44,656 bases of DNA from a virus: the IMG/VR virus record IMGVR_UViG_3300036861_000552, positions 1-44,656 of that record. One strand, 5' to 3'. The translations under genes were made by a program, and so were the position numbers. Positions within the stretch are counted from its first letter, which is position 1. Each line of letters begins with the position of its first letter. This document shows positions 3,387-22,026 of this stretch, in pieces. The notes beneath the pieces were generated by a model. The model saw nothing but the letters and a program-made list of their open reading frames with translations. It was not told the DNA's origin and searched no databases.

Positions 3387-3437
3387 GCCTTGATAAACGA
3401 GGGTAAATCCATACCCTGAAAGGAGTTAATTCTTATC

Positions 3438-4556
3438 ATGGGCGTGATAAAGGTCAACCCCCACAAGAACTGGTTGGACAAGGCCCGGATCCTCGAGACC
3501 GAGGGCTCCGGGGCTCTGGAGAACATCCCAAAGCCCTGGATGCTGATCGAGGGCCTGATCCCCCAAGGTGCGGTCTGTGTGCTGGCGGGGCGCGGGTACT
3601 CGGGCAAGACGTTCCTGGCGATGGAAGCGGCGCGGTCCATCGTCACGGGATCCCCGTTCCTCGGGCACTACAAGGTCCCGGAGTACAGCCGGGGCAACGT
3701 GCTGTTCATCGAGCAGGACTCCCCGAAGTACGACACGGGCAATGCGATCTGGGCGATGATCAAGGAGCAGTGGAAGGCCGAGAAGACAGACATGAACCTC
3801 CAGCAAACGCTCGAAGGGCTTAGGCTGTGCTGGCATCCGGGACTCAATCTGATGCAGCGAATGGATGCGTACTCGATCGCGAAGACGGCCAACTCCCTGT
3901 TCACCCATCTCAAGAACGTGGTGACCTTCGAACCCATCTTCTCCGAAGAGGGTGACATCATCGGCCAGCGCCCGACTGGCGACATCGAACAAGAAGGGTA
4001 TCGAGGATCGAAGCTCATCGTGCTCGACACGCTGCGCGCGTTGAACACGGGCAAGGAGAATGAGTCGGACGACATGGAGCCGATCATTCAGAACCTCAAG
4101 CTGATCCGGCATCTCACTGGAGCAACGATCATCCTGATTCACCACACGGGCGCGGGCGACGAACGCACGCGTGGGTCTACGGCAGTGGAAGACGGCGCAG
4201 ACTTCACGATGTTTGTCAAGGGAAGAAAGGGCAAGGCCAAAGTCGAGATTCGGAAGGCCCGCGCGGTCCAACCGCTCGATTTCAAGTTCGAGATCACGTC
4301 GCAGGAGAAGCCCGAACTCGGGATGACGAAACAGGTCGTGTTCCGTGGTGAGTTGGAGGAACAGGACTCGGACGATGAGGATCCCAATCAGCTTGCGGAA
4401 TACCTCAAGAAGCAGGGCGAGGTCTCACGCGAGCAACTGCTTGAATGGTCAGCACTTAACGGCATGTCATCGGCGACGCTTGATCGCCGGCTCAAGGAAC
4501 TTGCCGTCTCGAAGCGCGCGGAAGGTCGGCGCGTGTTCTACACACTTTCCGCTTGA
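3438..4556 (+). CDS. RecA-fold replicative helicase / RepA-like ATPase with C-terminal winged-helix
   Basis: Walker A GRGYSGKT, Walker B LIVLDTL, IILIHHTG; C-terminal HTH-like LLEWSALNGMSSATLDRRLKEL. Confidence 0.8.
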   Translation: MGVIKVNPHKNWLDKARILETEGSGALENIPKPWMLIEGLIPQGAVCVLAGRGYSGKTFLAMEAARSIVTGSPFLGHYKVPEYSRGNVLFIEQDSPKYDTGNAIWAMIKEQWKAEKTDMNLQQTLEGLRLCWHPGLNLMQRMDAYSIAKTANSLFTHLKNVVTFEPIFSEEGDIIGQRPTGDIEQEGYRGSKLIVLDTLRALNTGKENESDDMEPIIQNLKLIRHLTGATIILIHHTGAGDERTRGSTAVEDGADFTMFVKGRKGKAKVEIRKARAVQPLDFKFEITSQEKPELGMTKQVVFRGELEEQDSDDEDPNQLAEYLKKQGEVSREQLLEWSALNGMSSATLDRRLKELAVSKRAEGRRVFYTLSA

Positions 4557-5466: not shown

Positions 5467-5666
5467 AGTGGACTTACGATCACATCACGGTCTTCTTGAC
5501 GAACGGCACGACTCTCCGGTTCTACAAGGTGACCAACTATGACATGACTGGAGGGTGGATCGCATGTTTCGACTACGAGTCCGCTTCTGATGGCAAGAGC
5601 AATTCGGCCACGCTCTACCTCGATAAGGTCGTCATGGTCGCTGGCGCGAACGGAGTACAGGCATGA
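5463..5666 (+). CDS. hypothetical protein
   Basis: Frame of ORF 5385..5666 trimmed to ATG 5463 (ATGA overlap). Confidence 0.55.
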   Translation: MKWTYDHITVFLTNGTTLRFYKVTNYDMTGGWIACFDYESASDGKSNSATLYLDKVVMVAGANGVQA

Positions 5667-14999: not shown

Positions 15000-15411
15000 T
15001 GAACTGATGCGGGATGAAGGCGTCCGCCTTGATGCCTACCAGGATACTGTTGGCCTCTGGACGATCGGTGTCGGGCATCTTCTTGGCAAAGAGAAGCGCA
15101 TGACTGAGATCACTCAGTTCGAAGCCGAAGCTCTCCTTGATGCGGATATCTGGGTGGCACAGGCATTGGCGAAGGTCTATGCCCCTACTGTGGTGAACAA
15201 CAACGCGCTGTACGGACACTCTCGCGAGCGAGTTCTGGTGAACATGGCATTCAACTTGGGAACTCGGCTGGGGGGATTCAAGAGGTTCCTCGCGGCCGTC
15301 AACGCTCACGATTGGACTACGGCTGCCAGGGAGATGATGGACTCGAAGTGGGCGAAGCAGGTAGGCGCTCGTGCAGATCGACTCCACAACATGATCCTCA
15401 TTGTAGACTGA
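14968..15411 (+). CDS. T4-type lysozyme (GH24 endolysin)
   Basis: LMRDEGVRLDAYQDTVGLWTIGVGH carries the catalytic E...D...T triad context of phage T4 lysozyme; no signal peptide visible. Confidence 0.9.
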   Translation: MDSNNLKQLRDELMRDEGVRLDAYQDTVGLWTIGVGHLLGKEKRMTEITQFEAEALLDADIWVAQALAKVYAPTVVNNNALYGHSRERVLVNMAFNLGTRLGGFKRFLAAVNAHDWTTAAREMMDSKWAKQVGARADRLHNMILIVD

Positions 15412-16481
15412 TGATCTGGGATGCCGTTGTCCTCGGAGCCGGATTGTACGGCTGCAAGGTGGCCCTAGAGTTGGCTGCCCTGCGCTTGAAGGTCGTTCTC
15501 CTCGATCCCAATCCCATGTTTGAAGGAGCTACACGGGTGAATCAGCAGAGGATTCACGCTGGATTTCATTATCCTCGGAGCATTACCACTGCCGAAACGG
15601 CTGCCCGGAACTACTTTAGATTCCTGATCGACCACGCCGAAGCAGTGGATGGCAACGACCGCCATCTCTACTGCATTGCGGCGGACTCGAAGGTCGGCCC
15701 GGAGGAGTATGAGCGGGTCCTCGATAGCATTGGTGCTGACTACCGCCGTGTGTACACCCCCTCGTACTTCGCGCCGAACATGATCGCGCAGTGCTACGAG
15801 ACGCATGAGAAGTCCTTCAACATCGACAAGCTCCGCGCGCTGTTGAACCAGCAACTCAAAATCGCCGGCGTCGAGCGCGTGACCGCCCCCGGGTCGATCG
15901 TTGACCTCGACGATGATCACGTGGTCGTGCAGGCGGGTAACAGCCTCTTCGAAGCGCGGTACGTCTTCAACTGCACCTACGCCAAGATCGACACGATCGT
16001 GCCGATCCGCACCAAGCTCGTGAAGGAGCACGTCGAGGTTCCGATCATCCGTATCCCCGGCCCGCATCCCTTCATCCGCGAAGACGTGACGGTCATGGAT
16101 GGGCCGTACTTCTCGGTGATGAGTTACCCGCCTCGCGTGGACTTCTGGGCCTCGGCCCTGACCCATGTGAAGCACGGACGGCACCATGTGTGGTCTCCCC
16201 CCGAGCCTGAGCCTGAGTGGAATCCCGAGGCGTCCAGCAAGGTGAGCCAGATGCTCTTAGACGCGGCCCGGTACATTCCCATGATGGCTCAGGCGAAGCA
16301 CCTGTCGAGCATGTACACGACGCGCGTGTTGCTCGCGGAAAGCAGTGATGACGATGGCCGGCCGGTGCTCGTTGAGTATGCAGAGGAATCCCCACGGATC
16401 ATTAGCGTGCTTGGAAGTAAATTTACTTCTTGCTACGACATCATAGACTTCATCCGTGTGTGGGCGCAGCATGCCATATAA
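15411..16481 (+). CDS. FAD-dependent oxidoreductase (DAO-like)
   Basis: N-terminal dinucleotide fold DAVVLGAGLYGCKVALELA...VVLLD; GATRVNQQRIHAGFHYP; ATG overlaps the lysozyme stop by 1 nt (TGATG). Confidence 0.75.
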   Translation: MIWDAVVLGAGLYGCKVALELAALRLKVVLLDPNPMFEGATRVNQQRIHAGFHYPRSITTAETAARNYFRFLIDHAEAVDGNDRHLYCIAADSKVGPEEYERVLDSIGADYRRVYTPSYFAPNMIAQCYETHEKSFNIDKLRALLNQQLKIAGVERVTAPGSIVDLDDDHVVVQAGNSLFEARYVFNCTYAKIDTIVPIRTKLVKEHVEVPIIRIPGPHPFIREDVTVMDGPYFSVMSYPPRVDFWASALTHVKHGRHHVWSPPEPEPEWNPEASSKVSQMLLDAARYIPMMAQAKHLSSMYTTRVLLAESSDDDGRPVLVEYAEESPRIISVLGSKFTSCYDIIDFIRVWAQHAI

Positions 16482-16881
16482 AGACATATTCCAGCGCCGG
16501 GCATCGGGCCTTCGTTCGTATTATAAACATAGGACGAAACGTCTGGACTACGCTGAACGTAATCGAGAACGTGAGCGAGCGAGGACTCGACAATGGCGCG
16601 CCGCCAATAGGCTATATGGGAACGCCGCACAACGCATGAGAGTATGGGAGAGAATGTTTTGGATAGGAAAAGTAAAAGCCGATCCTTGTGTAGATTGTGG
16701 GAGAAAGTATCCACCCTACGTGATGCATTTCGATCATATACGAGGTAAGAAGAAGTTCAACATTGCCCTCGGATATCAGAGAACGGCTAAAGATGTCAAT
16801 GAAGAGATCGCGAAATGTGAACTTGTCTGTGCGAATTGCCACGCGGAGAGAACATGGAAAAGGCGTCAGGCATCAAAGTAG
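16471..16881 (+). CDS. HNH homing endonuclease (third paralog, longer N-terminus)
   Basis: DPCVDCGRKYPPYVMHFDHIRGKKK...LVCANCHAERT; AT-rich relative to flanks; overlaps both neighbours. Confidence 0.85.
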   Translation: MPYKDIFQRRASGLRSYYKHRTKRLDYAERNRERERARTRQWRAANRLYGNAAQRMRVWERMFWIGKVKADPCVDCGRKYPPYVMHFDHIRGKKKFNIALGYQRTAKDVNEEIAKCELVCANCHAERTWKRRQASK

Positions 16882-17534
16882 TTGGAAGGCGGGCGCTGAT
16901 GGGAAGGGGATTTTTAGGTTCTTCTCTGGATAAAAAGGGGCGCTGGACCGACCGCTATAACAGGTCAAAATGTGACCTTTGGGGGTCGTATGATTTGATC
17001 GTCGTGGCGGCGCCGAGAGCGGACAAGTGGTTCGCGAACCAGCATCCAGACATAGATCGTGCTGCGGTCGAAGAGATCATCACTGCTCTCGCCCGGGCCG
17101 ATTCGAGGCGCGTGGTGCTGCTCTCCTCTATCGATGCTGGTGGGGCGCACCCTTACGGACAGAATCGCGCGCGATTGGAGGAGGGCATGCCGAAGCATGC
17201 GTCCATCATCCGGCTTCCCGCCCTCTTCGGAGATGGGCTCAAGAAGAATAGCCTTTTCGACCTGCTCAACAATCAGCCCGTTGCGAACAATGTCTTCCAC
17301 TGGTACCACGTGGCCCGTCTATGGGAGGACGTGCGAAAGGCGCAGCCCGGGCTCTGGTGCCCGTACTCTGCGCCTCTATCGATGTGGGAAATTGCGGAGC
17401 GACTCGGCCTCACCCATCTGGTCACTAAGGATTGCGATCGGAAACTGGACTACAATGAAAAAGGCCCCTACACCATGTCTAGTGTAGAGGTCCTGGAGGA
17501 CATCGTTCGATGGGCGACATCCGCCTCAGCGTAA
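16854..17534 (+). CDS. Rossmann-fold SDR / RmlD-like sugar reductase-epimerase homolog
   Basis: GRGFLGS dinucleotide motif; DLIVVAAPRA...VVLLSSIDAGG...YGQNRARLE parallels RmlD-type DVIVNAAA...YSTDYVF...YGxTK, with R where the YxxxK lysine is expected; start 16854 or 16899. Confidence 0.55.
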   Translation: MEKASGIKVVGRRALMGRGFLGSSLDKKGRWTDRYNRSKCDLWGSYDLIVVAAPRADKWFANQHPDIDRAAVEEIITALARADSRRVVLLSSIDAGGAHPYGQNRARLEEGMPKHASIIRLPALFGDGLKKNSLFDLLNNQPVANNVFHWYHVARLWEDVRKAQPGLWCPYSAPLSMWEIAERLGLTHLVTKDCDRKLDYNEKGPYTMSSVEVLEDIVRWATSASA

Positions 17535-18376
17535 TCGTTCCAACATGCGGTCGCAGCACGCTAGAGAACACGGTGCAATCCGTGATGAACCAGATGCGTA
17601 TACACGACGAACTCATCATTGTTGGAAGTAGAGTACCTGAACAATTTCCCAGCGACATGGGACAGTTGAAGTGGGGCTACGACAACAGACCCGGTTTGTT
17701 CCAATTCCTTCATCGGGACAACAAGGGATGTCGCGCGGATAACAGCACCATGAGCGGACCTAAGAATCAGACTCATGGTCCACAGGGCACGGAGAGCGGC
17801 GCAGTCGAGCGGGACATGGGAGATGCGGTCGCCACCGGCACCCACCTGCTCCACATCGACGACGACGACATCTTCGTCAAGGATGCGTTCGAGAAGGTGC
17901 GGGCCGCGATCGCCAAGGACCCCAATCGGGTCCTGATATTCCGCATGGAGTACGGAATCAAGAATCAATGGATCAGCCCGTACTCGATTGACATTGACGG
18001 GGTGCCAACGCTCGGCGTCCAGGAGCGCGTGGCGCTGGCAGCATTCGGCGGGATGGAGATGGTGTTCCCGCGCGTGAGCCCGAACCCGAGATGGGAGCAA
18101 GAGGGAGAGATGCGCAACTCGTGCGAGGACTACTTCAACACGAAGCGGTATTTGGAGGCGCTGGGCACTGAGCCCGTGTGGCCTCGCAAGACGATCGGGA
18201 TTGTCCGACCGACCCGAGAGCAGATTCTCTTCCACACGGGTCGGGACACCAATCCCTTGTACGCACCACAGCCGGCATGGAATGGAGTTCAACAGCGACG
18301 AATGAAGTGTGGCGAGAGCCCACTTCGACCGGAAGTGTTGGCTGCGATGGCTCGAAGGAGAGCAGGAAAGAAATAG
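17510..18376 (+). CDS. family-2 (GT-A fold) glycosyltransferase
   Basis: LSVIVPTCGRSTLENTVQSVMNQ N-terminus and HIDDDDIF DxD motif. Confidence 0.85.
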   Translation: MGDIRLSVIVPTCGRSTLENTVQSVMNQMRIHDELIIVGSRVPEQFPSDMGQLKWGYDNRPGLFQFLHRDNKGCRADNSTMSGPKNQTHGPQGTESGAVERDMGDAVATGTHLLHIDDDDIFVKDAFEKVRAAIAKDPNRVLIFRMEYGIKNQWISPYSIDIDGVPTLGVQERVALAAFGGMEMVFPRVSPNPRWEQEGEMRNSCEDYFNTKRYLEALGTEPVWPRKTIGIVRPTREQILFHTGRDTNPLYAPQPAWNGVQQRRMKCGESPLRPEVLAAMARRRAGKK

Positions 18377-18456
18377 GGGGCGTGGGCTGGTTCGATTCCG
18401 GCTGGATGGTGCATGGGGGTTCGAATCCCTCCTTGGTCTGGGGACAGCACGCCCCG
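18377..18456 (+). other. tRNA-like element: 8-bp closing helix enclosing two T-arm-like hairpins; not a canonical tRNA
   Basis: GGGGCGTG (18377-84) pairs with CACGCCCC (18448-55). Inside are GCTGG-TTCGATT-CCGGC (18386-18402) and GGGGG-TTCGAAT-CCCTC (18415-18431), each a 5-bp stem with a 7-nt T-loop-consensus loop. No D arm or anticodon arm can be drawn. Confidence 0.4.
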
Positions 18457-18464
18457 AAAACATA

Positions 18465-18508
18465 AAGGCCCGACCCCAATGTTCAGGGATCGGGCCTTGT
18501 TCATTTTT
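18465..18508. terminator. bidirectional rho-independent terminator at the convergence of the two arms
   Basis: 9-bp perfect stem AAGGCCCGA/TCGGGCCTT plus inner CCC/GGG; followed by GTTCATTTTTAT on + and by TATGTTTTCG on -. Confidence 0.75.
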
Positions 18509-18519
18509 ATTGAACAGCT

Positions 18520-18927
18520 TTACTTCGTGGCGACCTTGTTCAGTTTCTCCACGGTGCGCATACCACCGAGCCCGAGCATGCCAACAAGTAGAGTGGTCAG
18601 CAATTCAGTCTGCATGATAGGGAGATCGACAGGCCGCTTGAGTAGTGCGCTGCCCCACACGACCAGTGGGCCAAGAACAAGTTGGAATGCGAGCGCGCTT
18701 CCACAGACCCAACCAATGAACGGTCGCCAGCCTGAGACGAACAGGTTTGAGGACGCAGCCTCGATCTCGTTGATCTTGTTCTGGCCGGCAATGACCGCGA
18801 GGTCGCCGCTCTGCTCCAACTCTTGCAGCTTGAGTAGAGCTTCGGCCTTCGCCTTCGGGTCGGGGATCAGCTTGTCGATCAGCTTCGTGCCGAGATCGAG
18901 GATCGAACCAATGACAGGGAGAGGCAT
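18520..18927 (-). CDS. 3-TM holin of the gene-transfer-agent type
   Basis: LGTKLIDKLIPDPKAKAE...GQNKINEIEAASSNLFVSGWRPFIGWVCGSALAF matches the GTA_holin_3TM pattern (iN..eA...F.sGWRP.iGW); last gene of the - arm. Confidence 0.8.
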   Translation of the reverse strand: MPLPVIGSILDLGTKLIDKLIPDPKAKAEALLKLQELEQSGDLAVIAGQNKINEIEAASSNLFVSGWRPFIGWVCGSALAFQLVLGPLVVWGSALLKRPVDLPIMQTELLTTLLVGMLGLGGMRTVEKLNKVATK

Positions 18928-18928
18928 G

Positions 18929-19138
18929 TTACTCCTTTGGACGGGTGCCGAAGTGATCTTCGATTCGCTCTATGCCCGCCTTGATGTACTTCACATCTGT
19001 TTCGAGAACTGCGATCTTCACCGCATGTTCGCTGGTCTTCTTGCTGGTAGCTCCAACCCACCCCAGAGTAGCAGTGGCGAAGATGCCGAGTAGGGCCGAC
19101 CAGAGTGTAGGTGTGAGTGGTGACGAAGAGTCTGACAT
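18929..19138 (-). CDS. single-pass membrane protein next to the holin (possible lysis accessory)
   Basis: TM segment LWSALLGIFATATLGWVGA followed by a charged helix; TAATG and TAACATG junctions with its neighbours. Confidence 0.55.
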   Translation of the reverse strand: MSDSSSPLTPTLWSALLGIFATATLGWVGATSKKTSEHAVKIAVLETDVKYIKAGIERIEDHFGTRPKE

Positions 19139-22026
19139 TACTTCTGCTCCTTCGGAGGATAGAGGGCGTTGACGAGAGCAGGAGTGGCGAGAGGGCCAAC
19201 GACAGGCACCATCGGACCAACATGCTGGAGAGCAAACTTCACTGCGCGCTTCGGCTTGCCGTGAATCGCCTCAGCCAAAGCAGTAGAGGCCTCGAGGACA
19301 TCCGACCCGGTGGGTCCAGCAACGAACCCGCCGATCCAGTCCTTCTTCTCAGCAGCCTGCATCGTATCTCCCCAGATCGAGAGGAGCCCGAGAGCCGCGT
19401 AGTTGTCGAATATGCGCTTCTGTTCATTGCGAGGTTTGTTGCGTGCGAGCGCGCGCATGTCATTGATGACCTCACCGCTGATCTGACCGGCGACGAGCAT
19501 CCGCGTCAACGGCATCAGATCACCTTCCAGCGCGGGCTTCACGACATGCTTCTTGAGAGCGATCGACTGCTGGTAGGCGAAGCTCTTGAACTGAGTCAGG
19601 ACCTTACCCGAGGGACTGTTCCAGAATGCAGGAAGAGACAGCGAGTCTCCCCAGAAGTTCCAGTCGGTCGAAACCTTCTGGCCAGCCTTGAGGAACTCAT
19701 CAGGGGTGAGGATGCCGCCTCGTTTGTAGAGCGCGGCTGTGTCCACCCCGAGGTCCACGAGCTTGGCCTCGATCTTCTTCAGTTGCCCCTCGATGTACCC
19801 CCGCTCCAACCCACCTGCCTTGTTGAGTCGCTGAGACAAACGGAAGGCTTCCTCTGCCTGATGAGAGGCAAAGGACCAACCTCGGAGCACGCCGTACTTG
19901 CGTGCGAGTGTGTCGAGTCCAGTGAAGCCGGTTCGCTGAAGTACCTTGGCCACATCGAAGACCCCTTCCTTACCGCCCGAATACATCGACTCTTCAGCCG
20001 CGCGCACGAGAGACTGAGTGAACGCGCCGGTACGGAGTAAGTTGTCCTGAAGTGCCGGGTCCTTCGACATCAGCCGGAAGAAGTCCTTCGCGGCCCCCCT
20101 GAATCCAGTCTGGAAGTTCGGCGTGACCAACTGCGCCGTCTGCGCGATCTGCGCGAGCCCGAGCTTGGTCACTGCTTGGAATTGCTGGAGGCTGGTGATC
20201 GTGAGCTTGATCCGCCCGCTGGCCTCCTTGTATCCTGAGCCAAGCTGTCGGGTGATGATGGCCTCAAGACGATTCTTCGTGTCCTGATCCGTGATGTTCC
20301 CAAGCTCGGCATACGCCTGTGGGAATAGGTCCTTGGGAGTACGGCCCGTGATGGCAGCATCCTTCTCAGGACCGAACTCGATCGCTTGGGTAATGTTCCG
20401 TGCCATGCGTTCGAGATAGGACGGCAACACATCGGCAGGGTTCAGATGGTATCCAGGCAGGTTGTAGTGCCGGCCCCATACCTGCACGGTGCCCGAAAAC
20501 TTCTTCCCGAACTTCCGCACAGCCTCCTCATACTCTCCAGAAGCACGAAGATGGATACGCTCCAAGACATCCTGCGCATGTGAATCCAGGGTCTCACCAG
20601 CAACGCTGGGTTTCCATCCCTCCTTCGTGAGGGTCTTCTTGATCGAATCGAGAGCCTCAGTGCGGAGCTTGCCATCCTCCATGAACCGTTCCGTGTTCAC
20701 CAGGATGTGTGGCATGCCGAAGTCTTTGCGACGAACGAAGTGGTAGAGGTTGCCACTCTCGGAATCACCAACCACGAGTTGAGCCTGCTCGGCCAGTGAA
20801 CCGACCCGAGTGAGTACGCTCGAAACCTCGCTCACCGCGCGCTGCACGCCCGCAGAATCTTGAGCGCGCGCGAGCAGATCAGGGGTGATTTCGTCTTCAT
20901 GGAGCAGGGTCCCGACGAGGTTCTGGTCCTCCTTCGAGAGCCCACGCATGGCAGCCGCCACGCGGGTGTTCCACTTCGCACCAAGGATATGCCGCTGACC
21001 TCGAAGTGCTACCAGTCGATCGGCGGTTTCGCCGAGCCCGTACTTGCGAAGCAATCCCTCGCCTGAGATGAACACGGCGTCGTTGGCCTGCTTCACCATA
21101 TCGGTGACGGCATTGTAGAGTTTGACGTGCGCGAGCGCCTTGTCGAGGGCCTCCGCCGCCGGACCGACTGTAGCTTTCGCAGCAGCGACACCACCCTTGA
21201 CCACGGCTCCCGCAGTCTTGCCGGCGAGTTTACCTGCTCCTGGAAGGACAGCGCCGAGGGCCACATCTTGCGCGAGCTTCTGCGCGGTGACCTTCTCCTC
21301 GTTGGCGATGGTGTTCGAGACATCGTAGGCTACAAGCGAGGCAATGCTGTGGGCCTCGATCGCGGCAATCTTACGCACGAGTTCATTAGGAATGAATCTG
21401 ACAGCATCACTGACACCGAGTTTGAGTAGACCACCAGCCTGCATGCTGGCGATGTCACCGAGCCCGCGATTCAGTTGGTGCTTCTCTTCCTTCGTCAATG
21501 TGGTGACAGACTTGAGGGTCTCTTCTGCTTGCTGCACGATGGGATCATTCGGTCGAGCAGCCTTGTAGGCAGCGAGACTCAACGCAAGTGACTTCTCCTC
21601 TTCAGGAGAAACCGGCATGCCGGCCTTCGCACGGAACTCCGCAGCCCATGAACGAGCAGCATTCACAGGTCCTTGAGCCCGTACCATGAAAGCAAACGTG
21701 CCAAGGTCCCGTCCAACCGCCTTGAGAGCAGTCGGGGGAGCCTTGGCAACATCAGAGATGAATTGACCAATGCCTTCCCCAAGCTGGGTGATGAGGTTCT
21801 TCTCCATCTTAGCTTCTTTCACAAGGCCCATAGGATCATTCTTGTTGAAAGTAGTAGTTGAGGGTGCTGGAGAAGTCCCTAAACCCAAAGGATCATTAGG
21901 ATCAAACCTATGAATTTCTTCAGGAAGAGGAGCATCCTGAGCCGCAACTAGGCCCTTTGTTACTGGAGCACCCAATCCAAAAGGATCATGGGGATTGAAG
22001 ACTGGAGGATTACTTGTGGGCATCAA
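19138..22026 (-). CDS. large internal virion / ejection protein (T7 gp16-position analog)
   Basis: 962-aa ORF at the distal end of the structural arm after two smaller candidates; N-terminal triple NDPxGLG repeat; product assignment is by size and position only. Confidence 0.6.
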   Translation of the reverse strand: MMPTSNPPVFNPHDPFGLGAPVTKGLVAAQDAPLPEEIHRFDPNDPLGLGTSPAPSTTTFNKNDPMGLVKEAKMEKNLITQLGEGIGQFISDVAKAPPTALKAVGRDLGTFAFMVRAQGPVNAARSWAAEFRAKAGMPVSPEEEKSLALSLAAYKAARPNDPIVQQAEETLKSVTTLTKEEKHQLNRGLGDIASMQAGGLLKLGVSDAVRFIPNELVRKIAAIEAHSIASLVAYDVSNTIANEEKVTAQKLAQDVALGAVLPGAGKLAGKTAGAVVKGGVAAAKATVGPAAEALDKALAHVKLYNAVTDMVKQANDAVFISGEGLLRKYGLGETADRLVALRGQRHILGAKWNTRVAAAMRGLSKEDQNLVGTLLHEDEITPDLLARAQDSAGVQRAVSEVSSVLTRVGSLAEQAQLVVGDSESGNLYHFVRRKDFGMPHILVNTERFMEDGKLRTEALDSIKKTLTKEGWKPSVAGETLDSHAQDVLERIHLRASGEYEEAVRKFGKKFSGTVQVWGRHYNLPGYHLNPADVLPSYLERMARNITQAIEFGPEKDAAITGRTPKDLFPQAYAELGNITDQDTKNRLEAIITRQLGSGYKEASGRIKLTITSLQQFQAVTKLGLAQIAQTAQLVTPNFQTGFRGAAKDFFRLMSKDPALQDNLLRTGAFTQSLVRAAEESMYSGGKEGVFDVAKVLQRTGFTGLDTLARKYGVLRGWSFASHQAEEAFRLSQRLNKAGGLERGYIEGQLKKIEAKLVDLGVDTAALYKRGGILTPDEFLKAGQKVSTDWNFWGDSLSLPAFWNSPSGKVLTQFKSFAYQQSIALKKHVVKPALEGDLMPLTRMLVAGQISGEVINDMRALARNKPRNEQKRIFDNYAALGLLSIWGDTMQAAEKKDWIGGFVAGPTGSDVLEASTALAEAIHGKPKRAVKFALQHVGPMVPVVGPLATPALVNALYPPKEQK

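Follow-up and report, generated by a model that had tools for sequence, protein, structure and literature searches.

Two T-arm-type hairpins in a variable slot at the early/late junction of an uncultured soil phage, best read as tRNA-gene debris

Why should the early operon of a phage end, directly past the stop codon of its last gene, in two hairpins with the geometry of tRNA T arms that are enclosed by a helix of their own? A sequence-only reading of this locus had offered three answers, namely a decayed tRNA gene or pair of genes, a relic attP-type copy of a tRNA 3' end, and a working tRNA-like structure at the 3' end of the early transcript, and had added that the same letters could also be drawn as a class-II-like tRNA. 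We have followed up these possibilities in the window, by which we mean the whole stretch of DNA analysed. It is a virus record of IMG/VR that is complete at 44,656 bp, carries direct terminal repeats, derives from soil metagenomes and represents an uncultured soil phage. The sequencing runs that contain the stretch are three, all of soil DNA and none of RNA. Early genes extend on the plus strand to 18376 and late genes on the minus strand start past 18520, and the element lies within the 88 nt that separate the stop codon of the last early gene, a glycosyltransferase, from a bidirectional terminator. The features that the argument needs are these, in window positions:

17510-18376, plus strand: family-2 (GT-A) glycosyltransferase of 288 aa, the last gene of the early arm (ORF list; Pfam PF00535, E = 2.5e-7).
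18359-18440, plus strand: ARAGORN call of a tRNA-Ser(cga), judged from the ARAGORN drawing, controls and Rfam to be no tRNA gene.
18375-18451, plus strand: variable block, about 75 nt long, with the entire element inside it (left edge from contig X3, right edge from locus L202).
18377-18384, plus strand: 5' strand of the outer helix, a perfect 8 bp, starting at the first base past the stop TAG.
18386-18402, plus strand: hairpin 1, of T-arm type, with a 5-bp stem and the loop TTCGATT (sequence; genome hairpin scan).
18403-18414, plus strand: linker of 12 nt that starts TGGAT, partly like the linker of a phage tRNA-like family.
18415-18431, plus strand: hairpin 2, of T-arm type, with a 5-bp stem and the loop TTCGAAT (sequence; genome hairpin scan).
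18432-18440, plus strand: acceptor-like 3' strand of the ARAGORN model, with no CCA after it (ARAGORN drawing).
18448-18455, plus strand: 3' strand of the outer helix, whose last four bases belong to the flank common to L202 (sequence; L202 comparison).
18465-18498, both strands: bidirectional intrinsic terminator, common to the converging early and late arms and conserved in L202.
18520-18927, minus strand: holin (GTA_holin_3TM), the last gene of the late arm (Pfam PF11351, E = 2.7e-21).

A check of the letters places the hairpins where they had been reported, at 18386-18402 and 18415-18431, and bears out the perfect 8-bp Watson-Crick complement between 18377-18384 and 18448-18455. The stem of hairpin 1 contains one T.G pair and that of hairpin 2 one G.T pair, and both end in a G-C closing pair. 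The stop codon of the glycosyltransferase is a TAG at 18374-18376, and the basic C-terminal tail that it terminates is common to homologues at 50-76% identity. With the terminator downstream of it, the block presumably forms an untranslated tail of the early operon transcript. Cultured phages gave no DNA match to window 17000-20000, and the DNA polymerase of the window phage has only distant relatives among them, at below 30% identity. A protein-pattern search of viral contigs with the glycosyltransferase and the DNA polymerase returned no relatives, and an alignment search with the glycosyltransferase found the L002 contig only among viral contigs and one more among metagenome contigs; the relatives compared below at the junction were reached through homologues of the glycosyltransferase and the holin. 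The glycosyltransferase closes a three-gene sugar block (window 15312-18376: DAO, a 232-aa protein, glycosyltransferase), which in L210 and L211 has another order, with the glycosyltransferase first, a DAO oxidoreductase second and a protein of about 230 aa last. Judging from the gene orders of L002, L210, L211 and the window, this sugar block is rearranged within the phage group.

Are the hairpins derived from tRNA at all? We found that these two are the only hairpins on either strand of the 44.6-kb genome that combine a 5-bp stem, a TTCRANY loop and a G-C closing pair, and that the same scan of 719 kb of related loci returned 11, three of them in real tRNAs. Given this scarcity, it is very unlikely that two such hairpins would fall by chance on one strand 29 nt apart (a rough estimate is about 1e-4). 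Additional support comes from the T arms of 1130 phage tRNAs called by ARAGORN, of which 41 lie within one mismatch of the 17-mer of hairpin 2 and four within one mismatch of that of hairpin 1. Because these four are T arms of Lys, Asn, Arg and Cys tRNAs, hairpin 1 is a T arm and not a mutated CGA anticodon arm, the part that it had been given in the class-II drawing. Moreover, a tRNA-Ser(TGA) gene of a phage, in L140, has the 22 nt of 18411-18432 without any difference, at the end of its variable arm and in its T arm. A fixed isotype for hairpin 2 was nevertheless rejected, its T arm being within one mismatch in many isotypes. The best cultured-phage matches to the element are likewise T arms of annotated tRNAs, none of them spanning both hairpins. 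The hairpin scan and the matches to phage T arms strongly support the view that both hairpins are tRNA-derived, an origin that we regard as beyond reasonable doubt. T-arm pairs 10-35 nt apart are themselves common in viral contigs, as a scan of IMG/VR for paired T-arm cores at this distance found at least 120 loci. Among the matches listed (122 sites), 48 partly overlap a called tRNA, so that at least one T arm lies outside any called gene, and 68 are without any tRNA call; in six, one call covers the whole site, and this call is tRNA-Ser(cga) in two cases, tmRNA in two, tRNA-Leu in one and tRNA-Trp in one.

Is the locus then a tRNA gene? ARAGORN reports one at 18359-18440, and we find that this stretch is not a tRNA gene. 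Of the eight acceptor positions in the ARAGORN model one is a G.G mismatch and another a G.U pair, no CCA follows the acceptor, there is no real D stem in 18367-18385, the loop TTCGATT stands at the anticodon position with a T at position 37, and the 12-nt variable region forms at best a 3-bp stem. An Rfam scan of the element gave no match at gathering thresholds (29 bits for RF00005), and on 18250-18560 no RF00005 row appeared even at E <= 10, the best row being a sub-threshold mascRNA at 18.9 bits (E = 0.2). Rfam likewise matched no tRNA-Sec in the window element, and neither ARAGORN -m nor Rfam found a tmRNA. The earlier statement that no cloverleaf can be completed proves correct, and the flaws already conceded to the class-II drawing, the missing D arm and the pyrimidine at position 37, are visible in the ARAGORN model. 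When the two hairpins were kept and all else was shuffled, ARAGORN still called a tRNA in 46 of 1000 controls, 42 of them Ser; because such controls are still called, the call rests on the hairpins plus an acceptor pairing that arises about once in 20. In addition, the 5' acceptor strand of the model (18359-18366) falls in codons for the basic tail that is conserved among the homologous glycosyltransferases, and it lies to the left of the breakpoint at 18374/18375. The class-II drawing is what a standard program does return for this stretch, but its acceptor is built from conserved coding sequence outside the variable block.

None of the divergent relatives examined at the same junction carries the element, and its only carrier besides the window is a near-identical strain in run X2, which has at least both ends of the block (the contigs end at 18388 and 18423). 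The left edge of the block is set at 18374/18375 by the X3 contig of a relative, which is identical over 18339-18374 and then unlike, and the right edge by L202, where similarity resumes at 18452 and runs near 90% through the terminator. In L202, whose glycosyltransferase is 69% identical, the 76 nt before the shared terminator extend the enzyme at its C terminus and are not significantly similar to the block. We considered this extension as a decayed copy of the element and rejected it (24/46 identities in a MAFFT alignment, with a global alignment score that 14% of shuffles and 24% of natural segments also reach). The terminator and its flanks are about 90% identical between window 18452-18520 and L202:4926-4995, and the terminator is more conserved between the two than the coding sequence of the glycosyltransferase, which stands at 69% at the protein level.

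In other relatives the space between glycosyltransferase and terminator is filled differently. In L203-L206 the stop codon runs directly into a different hairpin with a different downstream gene, in L209 there is an additional ORF at the junction, and in L002 three more early genes are present that abut the holin. On the P0002 contig (JGI sample 3300071358; glycosyltransferase 69% identical) HTH_17 and Phage_integrase domains begin at the glycosyltransferase stop. What follows the glycosyltransferase on this contig is an excisionase-like HTH_17 protein, a tyrosine integrase of 319 aa and five small ORFs. Because the contig carries such an excisionase-integrase cassette, some members of this otherwise integrase-less podovirus group are probably temperate. 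L003 (holin 71% identical) has real tRNA-Ile(gat) and tRNA-Asn(gtt) genes at 2095-2248 on the minus strand, directly before the terminator, and these resemble the window element in slot, in lying on the early strand and in their site before the terminator; they differ from it in being complete cloverleaves, with T arms that are unlike the window hairpins in sequence. A lone T arm is found in L004 (holin 62%) at 5529-5549 on the minus strand, which is again the early strand, about 150 nt beyond the holin and within a non-coding stretch of about 350 nt, where the Rfam tRNA model covers positions 43-63 only (15 bits). In L056 a tRNA-Thr lies on the converging strand, some 1 kb away from the holin. 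On comparison of these loci, the slot between the glycosyltransferase stop and the terminator is a hot spot at which small cargo is exchanged and tRNA sequences recur.

Taken together, we consider non-functional tRNA-gene debris to be the best reading of the element, and one that is somewhat likelier right than wrong. It is preferred because the hairpins are tRNA-derived while a tRNA fold is absent, because the slot is variable and the relatives are without the element, and because T-arm pairs are common in viral contigs and tRNA fragments pervasive. It is preferred also because folding gives no structural signal, as 200 dinucleotide-preserving shuffles of the 106-nt stretch average -36.1 kcal/mol and the stretch itself has a minimum free energy (MFE) of -35.5 kcal/mol (z = 0.16). 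The element would consist of two tandem fragments, each retaining a T arm and a few following bases, in a block that sits in the cargo-swapping slot, past the stop codon of the glycosyltransferase and ahead of the bidirectional terminator. This block would probably be the remainder of truncated or deleted phage-borne tRNA or tRNA-like genes, and it would be transcribed, with no role of its own, in the 3' untranslated part of the early operon; both this route of origin and the lack of function are what we infer.

Fragments of tRNA genes that arise through recombination or integration and are miscalled by gene finders are documented and pervasive in genomes (van der Gulik et al. 2023, PMC9897764). 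The element shares with these partial tRNA genes that a T arm and adjacent bases are kept and the rest of the cloverleaf is missing, that a finder still reports a tRNA, and that the site is one of genetic exchange. It differs from them in that there are two tandem fragments, which are enclosed by an 8-bp helix and lie in the virion-form genome of a phage with no integrase, and in that neither a complete partner tRNA gene nor a matching host tRNA turned up. Several observations also speak against debris. Both hairpins are perfectly formed, which is unexpected in an old decaying relic, although the block may be recent. The outer helix, the one feature that a relic leaves unexplained, is a perfect 8 bp; with flanks placed in this way, a helix of that kind turned up in 0.28% of shuffles and at only about 0.9-1.0% of comparable natural positions in the window genome and related loci, a rarity that was noticed after the fact and that we regard as suggestive. 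In the MFE fold the outer helix is stacked directly on hairpin 1, and a fold drawn by hand from the outer helix and the two hairpins has -28.2 kcal/mol. Finally, L003 contains a complete tRNA-like RNA, described below, which implies that RNAs with two T loops can be real genes in this phage group, and the window scores at the top of the range of generic sites against a model of the 3' half of such RNAs.

These same observations are what favours the alternative that survives best, according to which the element is a functional and self-contained tRNA-like module that ends the early transcript and in which an 8-bp helix closes off the two T-loop hairpins; we regard it as unlikely. Possible roles for such a module are a cleavage signal for tRNA processing past the glycosyltransferase stop, protection of the 3' end, or a decoy for tRNA-binding factors, and it could be a minimal relative of the two-T-loop tRNA-like RNAs of phages. 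The latter are a recurrent, covarying phage RNA that we found among the double T-arm sites without a tRNA call (L108, L112, L180, L199, L200, L191, L155, L137, L146, L173, L176, L162, L192 and L213-L219). From 5' to 3' its members consist of a 7-bp acceptor, a D-like hairpin whose loop is TTGG, a 5-bp arm with a tetraloop (often GACG) that occupies the anticodon position, a TTCGATT hairpin, a linker of 9-13 nt containing TGG, a T arm and the acceptor 3' strand, and their stems covary between members. Most of them receive no tRNA call from ARAGORN, two being called Ser(cga) or Leu, and Rfam 15 matched no such family in the window and the relative loci scanned. Full-length versions are present in dozens of other viral contigs as well as in the related phage L003.

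The L003 element (3414-3510, minus strand) is a complete non-canonical tRNA-like RNA that lies between early genes on the early strand and has an encoded ACCA. Its 7-bp acceptor, the 5' strand of which shows a tandem duplication of 9 nt, is accompanied by a D-like hairpin, an arm capped by a tetraloop, a T-loop hairpin, one more small hairpin and a 4-bp T arm. ARAGORN misses it, Rfam gives it 23.9 bits as tRNA-Sec (E = 0.013), and R1, a full-length model of the family that we built from six members, aligns over its whole architecture with 27.3 bits (E = 0.002). Its T-loop hairpin is identical to hairpin 1 of the window at 15/17 positions, and the two positions that differ pair with each other in both (T.G in the window, A-T in L003); the spacing from hairpin to T arm is 33 nt in L003 and 29 nt in the window. 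Like the members of the family, the window has a TTCGATT hairpin, a linker that contains TGG and that starts TGGAT as in several of them, and a T arm, with its 29-nt spacing within their range. In contrast to them it is without an acceptor stem, a D-like TTGG hairpin and a tetraloop arm 5' of hairpin 1, that is without the whole 5' half. Against R1 the window reaches 18.2 bits (E about 0.3), which is at the level of ordinary tRNAs, whereas members reach 35-113. Against R2, a model of the 3' half only whose members were chosen without reference to the window, it reaches 33.5 bits, near the 37.0 of L003 and below the 43-49 of held-out members, but generic double T-arm sites span 17-33 bits on the same model. 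By the full-length score the window element does not qualify as a member of the family; it may be a truncated derivative.

One further locus bears on a functional module. L152 (G006:C1:15613-15649, minus strand) belongs to a phage of 49.7 kb that has terminal repeats. Where its gene blocks diverge, they leave a region of 2.4 kb, and in this there is a double T-arm block like that of the window, with a linker ending CAT and a second stem GGGGG followed by TCTGG. This is the only other IMG/VR match to the pattern, and thus the only other viral contig with the same arrangement of hairpin, CAT and GGGGG stem. We rejected this phage as a relative of the window phage, since the two share no detectable proteins in the 13 kb examined around its element, and this counts against the module. 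Against a module there is in addition its absence from every divergent relative at the junction, and a terminator within 10 nt of the helix, which makes a separate 3'-end signal seem redundant. The functional option of the sequence-only reading falls on three of the four points that had been named for its refutation, with no covariance support from Rfam, a folding energy equal to that of shuffles and no conservation in relatives. In its more specific form, in which the element would be a minimal working member of an undescribed set of non-decoding two-T-loop phage tRNA look-alikes with the 8-bp helix replacing the acceptor stem, it appears a shade less likely still; such a module would mark the early transcript past the glycosyltransferase stop for host factors that process or bind tRNA. 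The t-elements of plant mitochondria and the mascRNA mimics are comparable in that a T-arm-bearing structure stands at the 3' end of a long transcript. In these mimics, however, the T arm carries a stacked acceptor stem and RNase P or RNase Z is proven to cleave them, whereas in the window any pairing of the acceptor is weak or lies 16 nt out of place, and processing of this kind would be putative.

It has also been proposed that the element is a relic attP, and it would then hold copies of host tRNA 3' ends left behind after deletion of an integrase cassette. We think this improbable. Its circumstantial support is that in the P0002 contig the HTH_17 and integrase genes follow immediately upon the glycosyltransferase stop, which puts the cassette of one relative in exactly this slot, and that the left edge of the block in the window coincides with the point where cassettes start. 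A T arm plus the 3' acceptor is, moreover, the usual extent of identity at att sites in tRNA genes, according to Williams 2002 as cited in PMC9897764. Against this, the tyrosine-integrase domain PF00589 is absent from the complete genome and from five relatives, in a search where the control genomes were all positive. We also searched for exact matches in 185,579 species of bacteria and archaea, each represented by a single genome. Hairpin 2 with the seven bases that follow it (a 24-mer) had none, and hairpin 1 with its following bases (a 22-mer) had one, in Rhizobium daejeonense, which lies in coding sequence with no tRNA nearby; we attribute it to chance, and it nominates no host. A hint at a host among the alphaproteobacteria comes from the GTA-type holin. 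The bases after each T arm are also unlike normal acceptor ends, there being no CCA and the implied first bases being odd, and a single attP does not need two fragments 29 nt apart. As far as the sampled genomes go, a recent attP copy of a host tRNA is excluded by the scan, and the block may at most contain a decayed copy or one from an unsampled host. Of the relic attP there thus stands the circumstantial link to the slot, and there falls any direct link to an integrase or to a host tRNA.

Least probable by far is what the ARAGORN call implies, a tRNA-Ser(CGA) that works although it is non-canonical and has no D arm, for which one can cite, besides the call itself, that TCG is the commonest Ser codon in the long ORFs of the phage (26.5%) and that hairpin 2 matches class II tRNA T arms, among others, but which is opposed by every defect of the model listed above, by the silence of the Rfam tRNA model, by the recurrence of the call in 4.6% of controls, by an acceptor strand in conserved coding sequence left of the recombination breakpoint, by a supposed anticodon arm that is a T arm, and by a fold of -19.2 kcal/mol as against -28.2 for the outer-helix fold and -24.7 for the MFE fold of the same 82 nt.

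Returning to tRNA-gene debris as the preferred reading, a first consequence is one of caution, in that the tRNA-Ser(CGA) call made here by a standard finder fails inspection, and the phage should not be credited with a tRNA gene. Should the element be a working module after all, it would be a very small natural two-T-loop RNA and a handle on the poorly known tRNA mimics of phages. For the biology of this podovirus group, our comparisons show that the early/late junction is a cargo slot, where tRNA genes, an integrase cassette and ORFs come and go, and where fragments remain.
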